Made by a program: the position numbers and the translations under genes. Below are positions 3,817 to 53,430 of a stretch of 64,000 nucleotides of DNA, one piece after another. The notes below the pieces were generated by a model. The model searched no databases. It was not told the origin of the DNA and saw only the letters and a list, made by a program, of their open reading frames with translations. Position 1 is the stretch's first letter. Each line of letters starts with the position of its first letter. The stretch lies in sequence record MT129652.1; one strand, given 5' to 3'. This stretch comes from Escherichia phage MN01.

Positions 3817-4049
3817 GTATTGCAATTTATATTAAATCCGAGTCATGTGATTCTTATCTGTATTCCTATGACACTGGAACACCAGAAGAGAAAATCAAAG
3901 ATGATTTAGAAACTGATTTAGATATGTTCCGCCCGATTTCTGAATACAGAATTCAAACTTCTGATAGTGAATCTCCTTCATTGGAAAACAGACTTGAATT
4001 TTTAATGAGTGATATTTTTAACCAATCATGGAAACGTGACGATGAGTAA
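3813..4049 (+). CDS. Hypothetical acidic protein
   Basis: 78 aa; ATGA start/stop overlap with upstream gene. Confidence 0.45.
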   Translation: MSIAIYIKSESCDSYLYSYDTGTPEEKIKDDLETDLDMFRPISEYRIQTSDSESPSLENRLEFLMSDIFNQSWKRDDE

Positions 4050-4500
4050 GAAAAACAAGGTGAAAGAATTATCTGCTGGCATTATTTTCATGACTGAAGA
4101 TAAAGAGTTATTCATGGGTCGTGTGACTGGTTCTCGTAAACCAGGTATGCCTGCACACAAATGGGACATCCCTAAAGGTCATGTTGAAGCTGGTGAATCC
4201 CCGATTGAAGCGGCTATCCGTGAAACCGAAGAAGAAACCGGGTTTACTCAATACGACCCGGCATTCTTAAAGGACCTGGGCGAATTCCGTTATTCAGATA
4301 ACAAAAATCTTCACCTGTTTTTGTACACGGTTCCGGTCGAGCATGAGCAGTTCAGACATAGTAAATGCTCTGCCTATCATACCTTCCCGGATGGTAGTTC
4401 GATTCCAGAGTTCGATGCATTTGCTCTGATTAAACCAAGTCAATGGCAGTATGTGATGGGCAAATCGATGTACAAGGTACTGACTCAAATTTTCGGATAA
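4042..4500 (+). CDS. nudE: Nudix hydrolase NudE (e.1)
   Basis: Nudix box GHVEAGESPIEAAIRETEEETGF; position immediately upstream of lysozyme as in T4. Confidence 0.8.
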   Translation: MSKKNKVKELSAGIIFMTEDKELFMGRVTGSRKPGMPAHKWDIPKGHVEAGESPIEAAIRETEEETGFTQYDPAFLKDLGEFRYSDNKNLHLFLYTVPVEHEQFRHSKCSAYHTFPDGSSIPEFDAFALIKPSQWQYVMGKSMYKVLTQIFG

Positions 4501-4526: not shown

Positions 4527-5018
4527 ATGAATATATTCGAAATGTTACGCATAGATGAAGGTTGTAAGTTGGATTTGTATAAAGATACTGAAGGCTATTG
4601 GACCATTGGTATCGGGCAACTGATAACTAAGAACCCATCAAAAGATGTTGCTCGTGCCGAGCTCGACAAACTCATGGGTCGCGTCTGTAATGGTCGCATA
4701 ACCCAGCACGAAGCTGAAACATTGTTTAACCGTTCGGTCGAAAAAGCTAAAGCCGGAATCTTGAGACACCCTGTCTTAAAACCTGTTTATGATGTGCTAG
4801 ATGAAGTTCGTCGTTGTGCACTCATTAATATGGTATTCCAGATGGGTGTTGCTGGTGTTGCTGGTTTTCCTAAGGGTATGCGACTTCTGAAGTCTAAATC
4901 ATGGGAAGCAGCTGCTAAGGAACTGGCGGACTCAAGATGGTATAAAGTCCAGACTCCGAACCGAGCCAAACGAGTTATAGAAACGTTCCGTACTGGAACT
5001 TTTAGCGCATACAAATAA
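4527..5018 (+). CDS. e: Endolysin (T4 lysozyme e, muramidase)
   Basis: N-terminus [12 protein letters not shown]...[13 protein letters not shown] and [12 protein letters not shown]...PNRAKRVI closely match T4 lysozyme. Confidence 0.95.
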
Positions 5019-8998: not shown

Positions 8999-9358
8999 AT
9001 GGTAAGAGTTATCACTTTAGCCATAGGGTTAGTATTCAGCATGGGAGGAATAGCTTCAGTACAGAGCGACGACAACAACAGCATCATAGAATATGCAACG
9101 AGGACGGCTAAAGATTATTGCGCAGCAAGCAATGTGGATTGTGTAATCCAGTTCAGCGCCAAGCTCACCGCAGCCTATAAAGACGGCCAAAATGATGTTG
9201 AACACACGCTTTTGAAAAAGAATGTATTGTCCAACAAATATGAAAAGAAATTATTTGAAATGGATTGCATTCTGTCAAGTGCAAAATATAAGGCGGCCTG
9301 CACCAGTATGGTGGACAGGTTAGTGGATTCATATAATAGAGGATTGAACTCTAAATGA
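8999..9358 (+). CDS. Secreted hypothetical protein
   Basis: 119 aa; signal-peptide-like N-terminus MVRVITLAIGLVFSMGGIASVQS; several Cys. Confidence 0.5.
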   Translation: MVRVITLAIGLVFSMGGIASVQSDDNNSIIEYATRTAKDYCAASNVDCVIQFSAKLTAAYKDGQNDVEHTLLKKNVLSNKYEKKLFEMDCILSSAKYKAACTSMVDRLVDSYNRGLNSK

Positions 9359-9828
9359 TTACCCAGTATATTAAGGGCGATATCGTCGCCCTCTTTCTTC
9401 AAGGCAATATTATTGCACATGGTTGCAACTGCTTCCACACAATGGGTTCTGGCGTAGCTGGACAGTTGGCGAAGGCTTATCCAAAAGTTTTAGAAATAGA
9501 TAAAACCACTACTGAATACGGTTCCAGAGAAAAACTCGGTGATATGTCTATTGTTTTTAAACATAAACCTATTGGGTTTGGTATGTGCTATAATTTGTAC
9601 ACCCAATATGAACCGGGCCCTAATCTTGATTATGGTGCTTTAGTAAATTGTATGATAGAATTAAATCTACAGGCAGAAACCCTTTTGTTTAAACCTGTAA
9701 TTTATATTCCTCGTATTGGTTGTGGTATTGCCGGTGGGGATTGGGAAAAGGTCTCTGTATTAATTGACATGTTTACTCCTGACATTGATTTAATAGTGGT
9801 GGATTATGAGCCAAGCTCGAATTCTTAA
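9355..9828 (+). CDS. Macro-domain (ADP-ribose binding/processing) protein
   Basis: Motifs AHGCNCFHTMGSGVAGQLAKAYP and IPRIGCGIAGGDW match the OARD1/TARG1-type macro-domain signature. Confidence 0.65.
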   Translation: MITQYIKGDIVALFLQGNIIAHGCNCFHTMGSGVAGQLAKAYPKVLEIDKTTTEYGSREKLGDMSIVFKHKPIGFGMCYNLYTQYEPGPNLDYGALVNCMIELNLQAETLLFKPVIYIPRIGCGIAGGDWEKVSVLIDMFTPDIDLIVVDYEPSSNS

Positions 9829-13653: not shown

Positions 13654-14106
13654 ATGATTATCAATTCAAACTCTTGGCACGTTAAATTACACGACCGTTT
13701 TTATGACCGTCATTCTCGACCACACTCTTTGTGTGCTTATTTCTGGAAAATGATTTGGGCTTGTTTTGCTTGTGCTATTGTTGCAGGTAGTACGCTTTTT
13801 GGATTAACTGTTGCAGGCGCTGGTGTATTAGAACATTTCTTTGTATTAAGTACTCCTGTTCTGTTGAGTCTAGGGTTTGTTTTAGGGTTGGCTGCAATAG
13901 CTCTTATTATTGCGCTATCCATTGGTTTGGCATTAGGTGCGATGAATTTACACGCATGGTATGATGCACGTATAGAAGAAAAGGAATGGCAACGTATTCA
14001 AGCTGAGCGGGAAGGCCGAGAAATTAAAGAAAATATCGTTATTCAATACATTAAAGCTCGTAAATCTAAGATGTGCCCGGTAATCCATTTTGAGGCGAAG
14101 AAATGA
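13654..14106 (+). CDS. Hypothetical membrane protein
   Basis: 150 aa; two or three hydrophobic helices (MIWACFACAIVAGSTLFGLTVAGAG; VLLSLGFVLGLAAIALIIALSIGLALG). Confidence 0.5.
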   Translation: MIINSNSWHVKLHDRFYDRHSRPHSLCAYFWKMIWACFACAIVAGSTLFGLTVAGAGVLEHFFVLSTPVLLSLGFVLGLAAIALIIALSIGLALGAMNLHAWYDARIEEKEWQRIQAEREGREIKENIVIQYIKARKSKMCPVIHFEAKK

Positions 14107-15113
14107 GAACAGTTATGAAAGGCTACTTCGGTAGCCATCTTTATGGGACAAGTACTCCGGAATCTGATGTCGATTTTAAAGAAATCTTTGTTCCTCATCC
14201 GCGAGATATCCTGCTCGGAACCGCGATGAACCATACCAACCTGAACACAAATAACACGGCTACCAAAAATACAAAAGATGATGTTGACCATGAACTTTAT
14301 AGCCTGAAATATTTCTTTAAACTGGCAGCCGAAGGTGAAACCGTTGCCCTGGATATGATTCACACACCGGCTGACCTGGTAGTCAAATCCGATTTACCAG
14401 ATGTATGGAAGTTTATTCAAGACAACCGTTCGCGGTTCTATACAACTAACATGAAAGCCTATTTGGGGTATGTCCGTAAGCAAGCTTCCAAATATGGTGT
14501 TAAAGGTTCTCGATTGGCTGCACTGCGTGGTGTACTGGCAATCGTTAACCAGATTCCTGAACAGTGGGTCGACTATCAAGAAGGAATCCCTGATAAACTT
14601 CGTCGTACTAAGGTAGAAGATATCAAACATCGACTTCCTGAAAACGAGTTCTGTGAATGGGTATTCCATAACCATGAGAAAACAGGTCCTCAAACGTTCT
14701 ATACTGTCCTCGGACGTAAGTACCAAACTACTCTGTCATTGGTCGAGCTTAAGCAATCTCTGAATAAACTTGATGCCGAATATGGCGAACGTGCTCGTAA
14801 GGCTGAAGCTAATGAAGGTATTGACTGGAAAGCACTGAGCCATGCATATCGTGCAGGGTATCAATTGATGGAAATCTACCAAACAGGTGACTTGGTATTC
14901 CCATTGCGTGAAGCCTCTATCATTAAGCTGATTAAAGCTGGTGAATTACCATTTAAAGAAGTTCAAGAACTTCTTGAAGATACTGTCGATTTAGTTGAAG
15001 TTCTGGCCATCCAGGCTGCTAAGAATGGTATGCCTGCGAAGGTGGACATGAAGTTCTGGGACAAGTTTGTTGAAGAGGTATACCTTGACAACCACAATTC
15101 CTATTATCGTTAA
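14103..15113 (+). CDS. Pol-beta-superfamily nucleotidyltransferase-fold protein
   Basis: GS-x10-DxD motif (GSHLYGTSTPESDVDF) and downstream acidic VALDMIH; 336 aa with helical C-terminal domain. Confidence 0.6.
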   Translation: MRTVMKGYFGSHLYGTSTPESDVDFKEIFVPHPRDILLGTAMNHTNLNTNNTATKNTKDDVDHELYSLKYFFKLAAEGETVALDMIHTPADLVVKSDLPDVWKFIQDNRSRFYTTNMKAYLGYVRKQASKYGVKGSRLAALRGVLAIVNQIPEQWVDYQEGIPDKLRRTKVEDIKHRLPENEFCEWVFHNHEKTGPQTFYTVLGRKYQTTLSLVELKQSLNKLDAEYGERARKAEANEGIDWKALSHAYRAGYQLMEIYQTGDLVFPLREASIIKLIKAGELPFKEVQELLEDTVDLVEVLAIQAAKNGMPAKVDMKFWDKFVEEVYLDNHNSYYR

Positions 15114-48588: not shown

Positions 48589-48734
48589 CACAAGAAGACG
48601 CTGAACGCCGGGCAAAAGAAGCGCTGGATTTGCTTTTGAAAATTGGCAGTAAAATGATGGAAGAAAACGAAAAGTACATCAAGGAAAATAAAGTTCCTGA
48701 TGGTCCATTAGTTGGTAAGAGGAAATCATTATGA
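48585..48734 (+). CDS. Hypothetical small protein (49 aa)
   Basis: ATGA overlaps at both ends. Confidence 0.35.
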
Positions 48735-49219
48735 AAGTATATGAATTAGAATTCTATGTCCGTGATTCCGCTGGACAGACACGACCTTACGATGCTACCG
48801 CATGCCTTATCATGGTTTACAATGGCATGGATTCGGTCACTGCATTGGAAACAAAATTAATGAACCTGACGATGCCAGAAAACGTTATGCTGAAAGTATT
48901 TCATAGAAAAAACGTTAATGTGGCCGAAGGGTGCCCGTTTACTGTTTCCGAAGCTCTGCACATCAAAGGCTATCGTTATCCGGACCATTATGCAGAAGGA
49001 ACCGCGGATATTTTCTATAAAGATACTGATAAAAATTCCAATGAACGTCTTCAGGGTCGCACTTATCTGATTTCTGCACCTGAAGACCTTACTGAAGTCG
49101 AACGTCAGATTTGGAAACACTTTGATATCGGCTTGCGCTTTACTTTAACAGAAGAAGCTCTGCGCGATACTAAAATGCGTGCTCGTATGTATGGTTACGG
49201 TCCTATCGGTGGTTACTAA
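48731..49219 (+). CDS. Hypothetical protein (mrh position)
   Basis: 162 aa; position between soc and the modA/modB-like genes. Confidence 0.5.
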
Positions 49220-49398
49220 TGGATTTATTTGAACTTTTTGAAGAGCCTAAAGCTCCTACGGAAGCCCGTGTTGACCTAGTTGACGAACTTGATGCGATTA
49301 TACAGAAGCACGGTTTTAGCCTCCCAATGGAAGTTCTACGCGACCTGGCCTCATATTATGACGACCCACCTCCATGGGCACCATGGGTGAAACAATGA
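49219..49398 (+). CDS. Hypothetical small acidic protein (59 aa)
   Basis: TAATG overlap; ends PPPWAPWVKQ. Confidence 0.35.
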   Translation: MDLFELFEEPKAPTEARVDLVDELDAIIQKHGFSLPMEVLRDLASYYDDPPPWAPWVKQ

Positions 49399-49649
49399 AC
49401 TGGTTAACAAATATTCCCACATCGGCGCTGGATATCGACCGTAAACATGCTCATAAGGAAATCGAGCAACAAAAAATTAATCGGTTACAAAGGCTTAAGA
49501 CTGAATCCGAGACAATTAAAGCCGAACGACCGACAGAATCGAAAAGTTCTTACTCATCATATCAATCTCCTAACTCATCATATCAATCTCCTATTGGCAT
49601 GGCCGTAGACATTGCAGTCTTTGGCGTTCCACTTGGAGTGTTTAAGTAG
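49395..49649 (+). CDS. Hypothetical protein with SSYSSYQSPNSSYQSP repeat and hydrophobic tail
   Basis: Internal ATG at 49395; 84 aa. Confidence 0.35.
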   Translation: MNWLTNIPTSALDIDRKHAHKEIEQQKINRLQRLKTESETIKAERPTESKSSYSSYQSPNSSYQSPIGMAVDIAVFGVPLGVFK

Positions 49650-49705
49650 TTTACTTACTCCCCTCCTAATGACATAATGGTCTTTCTTACAACAGAGAGA
49701 CCATT

Positions 49706-50266
49706 ATGAACATCATCAAATCTGATACCGAACCCAACCAGTTAAAATTTAGTGAAATGGAGATAGCTTCATTATTTGAATGCCGCACATCAAAGGTTGA
49801 TAAGACCTTGCATTCAAATGTCAACTCAATCATCAAGTCAAGGTTGTCTATACCCGATACAGTCTTGTGGCGCGGAGTAACCCAGCAAGAGATTGATTTG
49901 TTAGATGAAGCAAAAGAATCAATGCAACCTTTTGAATTTGGACGGGTAACCTCCTTTACAGAAGACTATGGTATTGCCAGGGATTTTGCTGCAATGGAAT
50001 ATGTGACTAGGACTATCGTCAGATTGAATCAGACCAAAGCTTTTTGTTACCATGATGCGATGCGCAAAATCGCGCTTGACGTTCCACTGGAATTCTTCAA
50101 TACAGCTTCTGGTTCCGCCCGGGCAGCTACATTAAGGCGCGAAGAATACATGGACATGATTGATTCTGAGCTTGAATGGTTTGTTCCAGTTGACCAGAAA
50201 TTCGTGGTAGTTGACGCTGGATTTGTTGGTGATTATTATGTTCTTGACTGTGTACAAGAGCAATAA
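49706..50266 (+). CDS. ADP-ribosyltransferase, ModA/ModB-like (first copy)
   Basis: R-S-ExE triad candidates LWRGVT, TSFT, ELEWFVP; 186 aa; tandem with a paralog. Confidence 0.6.
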   Translation: MNIIKSDTEPNQLKFSEMEIASLFECRTSKVDKTLHSNVNSIIKSRLSIPDTVLWRGVTQQEIDLLDEAKESMQPFEFGRVTSFTEDYGIARDFAAMEYVTRTIVRLNQTKAFCYHDAMRKIALDVPLEFFNTASGSARAATLRREEYMDMIDSELEWFVPVDQKFVVVDAGFVGDYYVLDCVQEQ

Positions 50267-50310
50267 GACACGTTAAGATGTTCCTATCAACTACTGATGA
50301 GGATAATAAA

Positions 50311-50925
50311 ATGCTGTACACTGATGACGTTTTGAATGGAATTATTGACACTGCCGCTTCTAGCGAGTCTTTTCGTGACCAATGTCAAGCTGAGATTGAT
50401 GCTCTTTATACAGATAATGAGCAATCAGTACTCTGGCAGTGTATGGAAAATAAACCCGACCTGATTCAAGAAGACTTGTCCAGGATTATCCGCAACAATC
50501 TGAATACTGCACCGCCGGCAGCATTGTTCCGTGGTATATCAAAGAAAACCATGGAATACCTGGAAGATTTAAGATATGTTGGTGCAATAATTGAGTTCAA
50601 CCGTGTGATGAGTTTTTCCAGAGACTGGCAGGTTGCAAGAAATTTTGCATCATACAGTTTCTATGGCACAAGGAACATTTTCTGTATAAACAATGCACCA
50701 TATGCGTATAACTATCAGGAAGCAATCTTCAAAATGATTTGCGGTGCTCCTCCCGAAGAGTTCAATGGTGCATATCCAGAAGCAACCAGGAAGTCAAACC
50801 TACACCTGGTTAATGATGAGGATGAGTTTATGTTTCCCGCTGGGACTACGCTTCGCGTAGACTTGATTGAAACTCACCCATTGAATAACCTTTATACTGT
50901 TTGGCATTTGACTGTTTTGAACTAA
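50311..50925 (+). CDS. ADP-ribosyltransferase, ModA/ModB-like (second copy)
   Basis: LFRGIS, MSFS, DEDEFMFP motifs; 205 aa; family-B leader upstream. Confidence 0.6.
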   Translation: MLYTDDVLNGIIDTAASSESFRDQCQAEIDALYTDNEQSVLWQCMENKPDLIQEDLSRIIRNNLNTAPPAALFRGISKKTMEYLEDLRYVGAIIEFNRVMSFSRDWQVARNFASYSFYGTRNIFCINNAPYAYNYQEAIFKMICGAPPEEFNGAYPEATRKSNLHLVNDEDEFMFPAGTTLRVDLIETHPLNNLYTVWHLTVLN

Positions 50926-50982: not shown

Positions 50983-51060
50983 TAGTGTACATGAAAGATG
51001 AACAGTGTATAATAATTTCATACTGAGTTACCAAATCGTCCGTAAGATGAGAAAAATAAC
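50983..51060 (+). promoter_or_regulatory. Promoter-leader cassette, family A variant
   Basis: GTGTACATGAAAGATGAACAGTGTATAATAATTTCATACTGAGTTACCAAAT. Confidence 0.45.
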
Positions 51061-51804
51061 ATGAATATGTCAAAAGAAGAGTTTGAATTAAAAGTTTACA
51101 AACGTCGCGAGCATACCAAAACGTCTGCAAAACGTCGTAACAAGGATTTCAATCTGTCTAGTAAGTATATTGCTAATCTTTTGAAACAAGAATTCTGTGC
51201 GTATTCTGGTGAACGTTTTGATGAAAATTCAACTCAAGATAAAGTTTCCTTTGAACGCTTTAACAATGATATAGGTTATATTGAAGGCAATGTTATCCCT
51301 GTCAAAACTAAGTACAACGGTTTACGTGCTGATTTATCTCTTGATGAACTTAAACGTGCACAGACTCGTTTGGCGGTGCGTATTAATGGCGGTTCTAAGA
51401 TGCCCAATAGTTTTAAAGTAACTCCTGATGGCTATTATAAAATTCGCAAAATTGTTAAAAATATTAAAGATACTGAACGTGGAATCAAGAAGCGTCAAAA
51501 ACATTTAAAAGAGCTTTATAAAAGTGGCGCTAAAGATACCACCCCTTCTGTGATTGCAGTCAAGGCTCGTATACATGGACAAATGGCTTCCATTGGAACT
51601 AGTCAACGTGGACTGAAAATGGTTATGGGTGGTCCTGACTGGCGTCTGAAAATGAAATCATCTGACGCTGAAACGCGTTACGATATGTATGATAAAATTA
51701 TTCAAGGTCTGGAGCGTTTAGATAAGTTGTCATTCATTGACCGTCTTAAACTGAAACGTGGCCTGCCTTTGAACGCGTCAATTTTTAAACTGATTAGAGG
51801 TTAA
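51061..51804 (+). CDS. srd: Srd-like protein
   Basis: 247 aa basic protein at the T4 srd position (between the modA/modB-like genes and dda.1/dda); no motif confirmed. Confidence 0.4.
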   Translation: MNMSKEEFELKVYKRREHTKTSAKRRNKDFNLSSKYIANLLKQEFCAYSGERFDENSTQDKVSFERFNNDIGYIEGNVIPVKTKYNGLRADLSLDELKRAQTRLAVRINGGSKMPNSFKVTPDGYYKIRKIVKNIKDTERGIKKRQKHLKELYKSGAKDTTPSVIAVKARIHGQMASIGTSQRGLKMVMGGPDWRLKMKSSDAETRYDMYDKIIQGLERLDKLSFIDRLKLKRGLPLNASIFKLIRG

Positions 51805-51805
51805 T

Positions 51806-52105
51806 GTGATGTACTACGCATATGTGCTGGTCCACAAAGATAAAGATGGTTTTGAACACCCATTGGAGTATAATGGAAAGGTTACCTTATACACCACAAA
51901 AGCGGGCGCAGAATATGAACTTGCCAACTATTCATATACTACAAACCGATATTTAAGTATGGGACGTATTGAAACCAGTTACATTCCCAGGAAGTGGTGG
52001 TTTGATAAACGGGAAACAAAAACAGTTTTTCCTACTGAAGAACACGCACGAGAATTGAAACAGGTTTTATATACTTTATATGTTAAGCGAGTAAAATTGG
52101 CATGA
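51806..52105 (+). CDS. Hypothetical protein (dda.1 position)
   Basis: 99 aa; ATGA overlap with the dda start. Confidence 0.5.
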   Translation: MMYYAYVLVHKDKDGFEHPLEYNGKVTLYTTKAGAEYELANYSYTTNRYLSMGRIETSYIPRKWWFDKRETKTVFPTEEHARELKQVLYTLYVKRVKLA

Positions 52106-53430
52106 TTAAATTTGAAGACTTGAACACAGGACAAAAAGAAGCTTTTGATTATATCACTGAAGCTATTCAGCGACGTTCAGGGGAATGTATCACTCTGAAT
52201 GGTCCAGCTGGCACAGGTAAGACCACTCTGACAAAATTTGTCATTGACCACTTAGTGCGTAATGGAGTTATGGGAATTGTGCTCGCTGCACCAACTCACC
52301 AGGCGAAAAAAGTTTTATCTAAATTGTCTGGTCAAACAGCGAATACAATCCATAGTATCTTGAAGATTAACCCGACCACATATGAAGACCAAAACGTTTT
52401 TGAACAGCGCGAAATGCCTGACATGTCAAAATGTAATGTTCTGGTTTGCGATGAAGCAAGTATGTATGACGGGTCTCTGTTTAAGATTATTCTTAACTCT
52501 GTTCCTGAATGGTGTACTATTCTTGGGATTGGTGATATGCACCAGCTGCAGCCGGTTGACCCAGGAAGTACACAACAAAAGATAAGTCCATTCTTTACGC
52601 ATCCTAAGTTCAAACAGATTCATTTGACTGAGGTCATGCGAAGCAATGCTCCTATCATTGAAGTGGCGACAGAAATTCGCAATGGTGGTTGGTTCCGCGA
52701 CTGTATGTATGAAGGTCATGGCGTGCAAGGTTTCACCTCACAAACTGCTTTAAAGGATTTCATGGTAAACTATTTCAGTATTGTAAAAGATGCTGATATG
52801 TTGATGGAAAACAGGATGTATGCATACACGAATAAATCAGTTGAAAAACTGAACAATATTATTCGTCGCAAGCTATATGAAACGGATAAAGCATTTTTAC
52901 CGTATGAAGTCCTGGTTATGCAAGAGCCGCACATGAAAGAGCTGGAATTTGAAGGTAAGAAATTCAGCGAAACCATTTTTAATAATGGTCAGTTGGTTCG
53001 CATCAAGGATTGCAAATACACTTCCACCATTCTCCGTTGTAAAGGCGAATCGCACCAGTTAGTGATTAATTACTGGGACCTGGAAGTTGAGTCAATTGAT
53101 GAAGATGAAGAATATCAGGTTGACCGCATTAAAGTTTTACCAGAAGACCAGCAACCAAAATTCCAGGCATATCTGGCGAAAGTTGCTGACACATACAAAC
53201 AGATGAAAGCCGCTGGTAAACGTCCAGAGTGGAAAGACTTCTGGAAAGCGCGCAGGACCTTTTTGAAAGTTCGTGCTCTTCCGGTCAGTACAATCCACAA
53301 GGCCCAGGGCGTTTCAGTGGACAAAGCATTCATCTATACTCCATGCATCCATATGGCCGAAGCTTCATTAGCGAGCCAGTTGGCTTATGTTGGAATCACA
53401 CGAGCGAGGTACGACGCATATTATGTATAA
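52102..53430 (+). CDS. dda: DNA helicase Dda (SF1B)
   Basis: Walker A GPAGTGKTT; LAAPTHQAKKVLSKLSG...; C-terminal TIHKAQGVSVDKAFIYTP; strong match to T4 Dda; 442 aa. Confidence 0.95.
   Translation: MIKFEDLNTGQKEAFDYITEAIQRRSGECITLNGPAGTGKTTLTKFVIDHLVRNGVMGIVLAAPTHQAKKVLSKLSGQTANTIHSILKINPTTYEDQNVFEQREMPDMSKCNVLVCDEASMYDGSLFKIILNSVPEWCTILGIGDMHQLQPVDPGSTQQKISPFFTHPKFKQIHLTEVMRSNAPIIEVATEIRNGGWFRDCMYEGHGVQGFTSQTALKDFMVNYFSIVKDADMLMENRMYAYTNKSVEKLNNIIRRKLYETDKAFLPYEVLVMQEPHMKELEFEGKKFSETIFNNGQLVRIKDCKYTSTILRCKGESHQLVINYWDLEVESIDEDEEYQVDRIKVLPEDQQPKFQAYLAKVADTYKQMKAAGKRPEWKDFWKARRTFLKVRALPVSTIHKAQGVSVDKAFIYTPCIHMAEASLASQLAYVGITRARYDAYYV

Follow-up and report, generated by a model that had tools for sequence, protein, structure and literature searches.

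Predicted ModA/ModB-type ADP-ribosyltransferase genes and a candidate start-site hairpin in Escherichia phage MN01

What do the two adjacent genes at 49706-50925 of the Escherichia phage MN01 sequence encode, and do they belong to a wider ADP-ribose economy of the phage? We analysed a window of 64,000 nucleotides (nt), the whole stretch taken from sequence record MT129652.1, in which these coordinates match exactly two adjacent open reading frames on the + strand, here called ORF1 and ORF2 (Table 1). A preceding reading of the letters (the sequence-only reading) had proposed that the two are tandem paralogs of the R-S-ExE class of ADP-ribosyltransferases (ARTs), that they occupy the map position of modA and modB in phage T4, and that, together with macro-domain and Nudix genes, they give the phage writer, eraser and hydrolase functions for ADP-ribose. 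Sequence comparisons and structural models lead us to conclude, with high confidence, that ORF1 fills the modB slot and ORF2 the modA slot of a T4-like phage, a Gaprivervirus, and that each encodes a single-domain R-S-ExE ART. The gene pair itself is already known, being annotated in near-identical phages.

Homology, catalytic residues and predicted fold

The Alt, ModA and ModB enzymes of T4 are arginine-specific and share an R-S-EXE site; ModA completes the modification of RNA polymerase alpha at Arg265 on both alpha subunits, ModB acts on trigger factor, EF-Tu and ribosomal protein S1 and is also able to attach RNA capped with NAD, and R73 of ModB is essential for catalysis (PMC10468400, PMC3014915, PMC2988021). 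At 50 min, the R73A/G74A mutation of ModB lowers the burst of T4 4-fold (PMC10468400). Both proteins of the window resembled the two Mod enzymes over most of their length. By BLASTP, ORF1 matched T4 ModB with an expect value (E) of 1e-23 (32% identity) and T4 ModA with E 4e-14 (29%); ORF2 matched T4 ModB with E 9e-29 (37%, 94 bits) and T4 ModA with E 8e-20 (35%, 70 bits). Each also matched PHROG 832, 'RNA polymerase ADP-ribosylase' (5e-28 for ORF1, 3e-38 for ORF2), and the two matched each other (65.5 bits, E 4e-18, 28% identity over 151 amino acids, aa). Pfam labels computed beforehand assign their homologues to PF26816.1, a model absent from the results of the Pfam scan made here. A PADLOC scan of both proteins returned one chance-level match.

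The putative active-site motifs are W55-R56-G57, S83-F-T85 and E155-L-E157 in ORF1, and F73-R74-G75, S101-F-S103 and E170-D-E172 in ORF2 (F84-R85-G86, S112-F-S114 and E181-D-E183 when ORF2 is numbered from a farther upstream ATG as a protein of 215 aa). Three such short motifs could, alone, occur by chance. We do not regard them as chance occurrences here because they sit in invariant columns, both against T4 ModA and ModB and across the family. In a six-sequence alignment that included the two T4 enzymes, R56, G57, S83, E155 and E157 (ORF1 numbering) were invariant; the E-x-E aligned with the E-Q-E of T4 ModA and ModB, and R72, S96 and E163/E165 of T4 ModA fell on the same R, S and E-x-E. When 58 family members were aligned, the R and G of the aromatic-R-G motif were each present in all 58, the first serine of S-F-[S/T] in 57, and each glutamate of E-x-E in 56. 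A later serine, in an 'F-A-S' segment, varied across the family and is Ala in ORF1. Of the three motifs that the sequence-only reading ascribed to both proteins, (W/F)RG and E-x-E stand; its S-x-S does not hold for ORF1, in which the aligned motif is S-F-T, as in T4 ModB, and the sole S-x-S (S135-G-S137) lies within a non-conserved insert.

More distant relatives were found with a profile of 45 sequences, for which the best PDB sequence match was the arginine ART Vis (4xzj; E 0.0077), with YRG aligned on YRG, S-F-S on S-T-S and E-x-E on E-A-E. The family is small: when 1.84 billion representatives were searched exhaustively with a profile, 81 clusters reached E <= 1e-3, of which 36 reached E <= 1e-10. 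A word-index homologue search returned few relatives (12 and 2), the index being the cause.

AlphaFold2 modelled ORF2 with a predicted local distance difference test score (pLDDT) of 96.3 and a predicted template modelling score (pTM) of 0.90, and ORF1 with a pLDDT of 84.9 and a pTM of 0.77. In the ORF1 model the arginine lies on a strand at residues 54-57 and the serine on one at 82-85, and a strand at 157-160 begins at the second glutamate of E-x-E; the corresponding strands of ORF2 are at 71-75, 100-103 and 172-175. A Foldseek search of the PDB with the ORF2 model matched Certhrax, XopAI, HopU1, C3, Tre1, Vis and iota-type toxins with a probability of 1.00. Among predicted viral structures (BFVD), the ORF2 model matched ModB of Serratia phage CBH8 and ModA of Shigella phage Sf22 (template modelling scores of 0.87 and 0.85). 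Sequence and models together place both proteins in the R-S-E clade, each having a predicted ART fold, an arginine on strand 1, a serine motif on strand 2 and an E-x-E before strand 5. Compared with R-S-E toxins and effectors of solved structure (HopU1 3u0j, Tre1 6drh, VIP2 1qs1, Vis 4xzj, Certhrax 4fk7, C3 1gzf and iota-like toxins; 9-16% identity), they have S-F-[ST] in place of S-T-S, a phage-specific N-terminal helical part, and no secretion or translocation module. T4 Alt (NP_049811, 682 aa) is likewise a phage arginine ART of this clade, classed beside the Mod family (PMC9503650); unlike ORF1 and ORF2 it is large, packaged in the virion, injected, and encoded elsewhere in the genome. Paralogy, homology with T4 ModA and ModB, aligned catalytic residues and predicted fold thus bear out the tandem R-S-ExE paralogs first proposed for this locus.

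Homology with T4 ModA and ModB and with solved enzymes of the C3, Vis and VIP2 type suggests how the proteins would work. Each, of about 190-200 aa, would consist of an N-terminal helical part followed by the R-S-ExE core. NAD+ would be held by the strand-1 arginine (R56 in ORF1, R74 in ORF2) and the strand-2 serine (S83, S101). Of the two glutamates of E-x-E, the second (E157, E172) would promote release of nicotinamide, and the first (E155, E170) would steer the ADP-ribose to an arginine residue in a host protein. T4 ModA and ModB are early proteins (PMC9697503). ORF1 would likewise be expressed early, probably from a promoter-like site (49649-49678) that would serve ORF2 on the same transcript, and host proteins of transcription and translation would be reprogrammed as in T4. 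ORF1 and ORF2 are, then, probably real genes encoding active enzymes, and most likely perform the same kind of chemistry as T4 ModA and ModB, early in infection; their activity, arginine specificity and early timing are what we infer from these comparisons.

A contrary view would have one or both proteins as catalytically dead relics, or as enzymes acting on substrates other than protein (as NADases or nucleic-acid ARTs). ORF1 is indeed very divergent, with a shorter N-terminus, and has Cys in the F-N-Y segment where most compared proteins have Asn; some enzymes of the R-S-E clade target DNA. On the other hand, every strongly conserved position of the family is retained in both proteins, and both are clearly homologous to ModA and ModB, which are biochemically characterised protein-arginine enzymes. 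Both genes are also clearly under purifying selection: relative to four Gaprivervirus relatives, the ratio of non-synonymous to synonymous substitution rates (dN/dS) was 0.08-0.125 for ORF1 and 0.03-0.07 for ORF2, at a synonymous rate (dS) of 0.2-0.3. We consider the relic or non-protein-substrate explanation highly improbable and retain that of active protein-arginine enzymes.

The start of ORF2 affects the numbering of its residues. Its frame is open from ATG 50278 (50278-50925, + strand; 215 aa), but the likely start is ATG 50311, because a GAGGA Shine-Dalgarno (SD) sequence lies before it, because this arrangement is conserved in Dhakavirus JS10, and because homologues are of matching length. 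ATG 50278 is preceded by TTAAG only; JS10 keeps the GAGGA and the ATG matching 50311 and has no upstream ATG; and the homologue clusters of ORF2 are all of 200-204 aa, apart from one cluster of 185 aa with an internal deletion. From the likely start, ORF2 follows the ORF1 stop by 44 nt, whereas in T4 the end of modB and the start of modA share 4 nt.

Gene order and the two mod slots

The window is from a VR7-like Gaprivervirus, a T4-like phage. Over 3.5 kb around the pair, nucleotide identity with the Gaprivervirus phages ECML-359, EAWsc9, VR20 and VR7 was 89-96%, and the modB and modA labels are already on these two genes in VR7, VR20, VR25 and ECML-359. VR7 ModB and ModA (ADR32397.1 and ADR32396.1) and their counterparts in VR20, VR25, ECML-359 and EAWsc9 are the same genes in the same order among the same neighbours, with few substitutions only; at the amino-acid level, ORF1 shares 95% identity with VR7 ModB and 98.9% with its EAWsc9 counterpart, and the cluster nearest to ORF2 is 98% identical. 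The order modA.3, modA.2, small ORF, modB, modA, srd, dda.1, dda is that of T4, VR7 and JS10, and the + strand of the window corresponds to the direction of early transcription in T4. The proposed map position is therefore confirmed by synteny with T4 and VR7, the pair lying between modA.2 and srd-dda.1-dda.

Table 1. Features of the mod locus and of the macro-domain and Nudix genes in the 64,000-nt window
Feature	Position	Strand	Remarks
ORF1	49706..50266	+	186 aa; predicted Mod-family ADP-ribosyltransferase, modB (upstream) slot
ORF1 putative catalytic codons	R56 49871-49873; S83 49952-49954; E155 50168-50170; E157 50174-50176	+
ORF2	50311..50925	+	204 aa from likely start; predicted Mod-family ADP-ribosyltransferase, modA (downstream) slot
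ORF2 putative catalytic codons (204-aa numbering)	R74 50530-50532; S101 50611-50613; E170 50818-50820; E172 50824-50826	+
GAGGA Shine-Dalgarno of ORF2	50299..50303	+	7 nt 5' of ATG 50311; read from sequence
Early-type sigma-70 promoter-like site	49649..49678	+	G-TTTACT (-35), 17-nt spacer, TG-n-CATAAT (-10 at 49673-49678)
Predicted 15-bp RNA hairpin	49673..49708	+	5' arm 49673-49687 (-10 hexamer and CT-rich tract); 3' arm 49694-49708 (SD-like GAGAG and ORF1 AUG)
modA.3/Mrh-like gene	48731-49219	+	Pfam T4_MRH 2e-44
modA.2	49219-49398	+	PHROG 1234 for the modA.3/modA.2 region; order as in VR7 and T4
srd	51061-51804	+	PHROG 1400 Srd 2e-89
dda.1	51806-52105	+	srd-dda.1-dda stretch: Pfam Phage_Y01A 6e-27; VR7 and T4 annotation
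dda helicase	52102-53430	+	VR7 and T4 annotation
Macro-domain protein, T4 Tk.4 (AdfM) orthologue	9355..9828	+	Pfam Macro 9.5e-8; 56% identity to T4 Tk.4, E 2e-68
Nudix hydrolase, T4 NudE orthologue	4009..4500	+	Pfam NUDIX 3.3e-16; 63% identity to T4 NudE, E 2e-72

It is gene order that makes ORF1 modB and ORF2 modA. T4 ModB (NP_049636, 207 aa) is likewise encoded by the upstream gene of a tandem pair, between modA.2 and modA, and T4 ModA (NP_049635, 200 aa) by the downstream gene, directly 5' of srd. Modification of RNA polymerase alpha Arg265 is known of T4 ModA, to which ORF2 is about one-third identical, and only of T4 ModB is it known that S1, EF-Tu and trigger factor are modified and that RNA is attached (RNAylation).

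A number of results weigh against the assignment of the pair as ordinary modB and modA genes, expressed early and equivalent to those of T4. General domain searches gave little: the Pfam scan of both proteins returned sub-threshold matches only (DRAT at 0.025 and 0.0042; Sld5; FTR), the NCBIfam scan nothing, and PDB sequence searches with the single sequences chance matches only. ORF1 and ORF2 both scored higher against T4 ModB than against T4 ModA, which diverges most among the proteins compared. When 49 proteins were placed in a neighbour-joining tree, the ORF2 clade joined T4 ModA with 17% bootstrap and ORF1 joined T4 ModB with 1%. The upstream copy of Dhakavirus JS10 shares just 30% identity with ORF1; 33 phage records match ORF1 at >= 90% identity and all others at < 60%, those listed being at about 29-32%; and a word-index search of 5.8 billion proteins found two clusters only. 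The ORF1 model has no counterpart of the two N-terminal helices that open the ORF2 model, and against T4 ModB ORF1 is short of about 20 N-terminal residues (two helices). ORF1 thus appears to be a narrow, divergent lineage, whose targets may differ from those of T4 ModB. Finally, a promoter scan of the region found fewer sites than in shuffled sequence, so the consensus match upstream of ORF1 is weak by itself.

Only 20 of 300 bootstrap replicates made ORF1 and ORF2 each other's nearest relative; the pair is therefore not a recent local duplication. The deep nodes of the tree were poorly separated, and we therefore assigned no ModA or ModB identity from it. This leaves room for a second explanation, in which both proteins are active Mod enzymes but the names given by position do not match function: the ModB-like role, on translation factors or in RNAylation, might be that of ORF2, and the fast-evolving, lineage-specific ORF1 might hit some other host or defence target. 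The BLASTP scores of ORF2, nearer T4 ModB than T4 ModA, agree with it, as do the ModB name of its best viral structure match, the indecision of the tree on orthology, and the hypervariability of the upstream slot between genera: the downstream copies of ORF2 and JS10 are 64% identical, more than twice the figure for the upstream copies. Alt and a ModA orthologue have moreover been screen hits linked to evasion of Mokosh in T-even phages, and ARTs can thus have defence-related roles. Positional orthology is nevertheless favoured because T4, Dhakavirus and Gaprivervirus have the same order of genes inside the same set of neighbours; the best tree, weak as it is, places ORF2 with T4 ModA and ORF1 in a larger group containing T4 ModB; and ORF1 and T4 ModB have in common S-F-T and E-x-E-W, beside their Y/W-R-G. 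We therefore judge a mismatch of labels and gene order unlikely, though a good deal less so than the relic explanation, and keep the positional names.

Neither slot is constant among related phages. Jiaodavirus, Winklervirus and Marfavirus have one mod gene only, between modA.2 and srd (a related-locus search with an 8-sequence alignment found Gaprivervirus and Dhakavirus loci only). In the Gaprivervirus-like phages P479, VR5 and NC-G, the modA slot holds an allele 65% identical to that of the window inside DNA otherwise about 90% identical, which suggests mosaic replacement. A further, short Mod-like gene (161 aa) stands beside the nrdC.11 nucleotidyltransferase in Moonvirus CF1 and Tequatrovirus GRNsp7; nrdC.11 is present in the window (14103-15113) with no Mod-like copy beside it. 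Searches of the window by tblastn found no third Mod copy and no Alt homologue; a weak match at 1072-1203 spans a stop codon and was dismissed as chance.

Among the neighbours, the small ORF at 49374-49649, between modA.2 and ORF1, had no family match; its likely start is ATG 49395, as in the VR7 annotation. It contains a perfect 21-bp tandem duplication at 49552-49593 (TRF score 84) that lengthens the encoded small protein by SSYQSPN; the C-terminus of this protein is hydrophobic, and VR7 has a single copy of the repeat unit. A promoter-like TGTACA-16-TATAAT lies at 50986-51013 (+ strand), in the 135-nt gap 5' of srd, and another, TTGACG-17-TATTAT, at 50211-50239 (+ strand), in the 3' end of ORF1, where it could serve ORF2; the scan cannot tell either from chance.

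A predicted hairpin over the start of ORF1

The start of ORF1 is covered by a predicted RNA hairpin whose 5' arm contains the -10 hexamer of the promoter-like site and whose 3' arm contains the SD-like sequence and AUG. Its minimum free energy was -20.8 kcal/mol (z -7.8), and none of 200 shuffled sequences was as stable. Among the 131 gene-start regions on the + strand of the window (mean -4.6, standard deviation 3.4), it ranked first, the next being -14.4. The hairpin was also considered as an intrinsic terminator; this was rejected, as no T-run follows it. The promoter-like site itself matched the consensus at 9 of 12 positions, with an extended -10 TG, and the same layout (GTTTAC followed by a -10) precedes modB in T4 and, in loci of Dhakavirus, Marfavirus and Winklervirus, the first mod gene.

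Comparison with other phages suggests that the structure is maintained. Within Gaprivervirus, two variable positions of the stem change in a pair-preserving manner (U-A to C-G or U-G). Hairpins of like design and different sequence occur at the mod start in T4 (z -6.2), where the promoter-embedded structure likewise lies over the start site of modB, and in Dhakavirus (z -3.8 and -4.7), Marfavirus (z -6.6) and Winklervirus (z -3.8). Jiaodavirus has a weak version only (z -0.6 and -0.45), and the arrangement in Roskildevirus FBB1 is different.

The proposed order of events is as follows: on RNA reading through from upstream, the hairpin would hide the ribosome site and AUG of ORF1; a transcript begun about 7 nt after the -10, at about 49684-49686, would be without the 5' arm and hence translatable. 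There is precedent for such a device in T4, where hairpins at e, soc, 49 and I-TevI sequester the SD sequence, the AUG or both on upstream transcripts, and transcripts from a proximal promoter escape; modB is not among the start-hairpin examples listed there (PMC3014915). The design at ORF1 is alike in that an SD- and AUG-covering hairpin has a proximal promoter in its 5' arm, and differs in that the proximal promoter is late in the T4 cases and of early sigma-70 type in appearance here. Third in strength, at -13.1 kcal/mol, was the fold at the start of the window's lysozyme (e) homologue (4527-5018, + strand), consistent with conservation of the T4 gene e hairpin.

We found no description of a mod start hairpin in the searchable literature. 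Our proposal, which we put forward tentatively and at somewhat less than even weight, has two separate parts: that the hairpin is a conserved, undescribed translational gate on the first mod gene of Gaprivervirus, T4, Dhakavirus, Marfavirus and Winklervirus, passing only transcripts from the proximal promoter; and that ORF1 is a lineage-specific ART with targets unlike those of T4 ModB.

Macro-domain and Nudix genes and the meaning of the locus

The window does contain the macro-domain and Nudix genes on which the idea of writer, eraser and hydrolase was founded (Table 1); what found no support is their link to the Mod marks. If the mod pair, the macro protein and the Nudix hydrolase formed one phage ADP-ribose cycle, the macro protein would reverse the marks made by the Mod enzymes. 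All three domain types do occur in the window, T4 NudE hydrolyses ADP-ribose among other substrates, and macro domains generally remove ADP-ribose adducts. Against this, cleavage of arginine N-glycosidic ADP-ribose is not known for macrodomains. The macro and Nudix genes are also remote from the mod pair: 40-45 kb separate them, and, as in T4, they belong to other gene clusters. The marks of ModB are arginine N-glycosides, removed by ARH1 and not by ARH3, HgCl2 or NH2OH (PMC10468400). The macro protein, for its part, is an orthologue of T4 Tk.4 and was matched best, in NCBIfam as in PADLOC, by models of DarG, a DNA ADP-ribosyl glycohydrolase (2e-7, below the NCBIfam curated cut-off, and 5e-8). 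According to a 2025 preprint (bioRxiv 10.1101/2025.11.20.689424), T4 needs tk.4 against DarTG2; the product resembles DarG and probably strips ADP-ribose from DNA, and the gene is there named adfM. A single ADP-ribose cycle is thus improbable, little better placed than the relic explanation; the macro domain more likely serves anti-DarT counter-defence than erasure of Mod marks, and the phage, to judge from the orthology, probably carries the same anti-DarTG2 counter-defence as T4 Tk.4. To read a phage macro domain as the eraser of Mod marks is tempting, and is an over-reading corrected here.

The gene call itself adds little, as modB and modA are textbook early genes of T4. The comparisons add that the serine shared across the family is that of S-F-[S/T] on strand 2, rather than the later, variable one, and that the modB slot evolves much faster than the modA slot, some genera having a single mod gene. 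This variability of the slots matters when findings on T4 ModB, RNAylation included, are carried over to other T-even phages. The start-site hairpin, with a design conserved across several genera, would, if the proposal is true, be a simple means of restricting production of a toxic enzyme.

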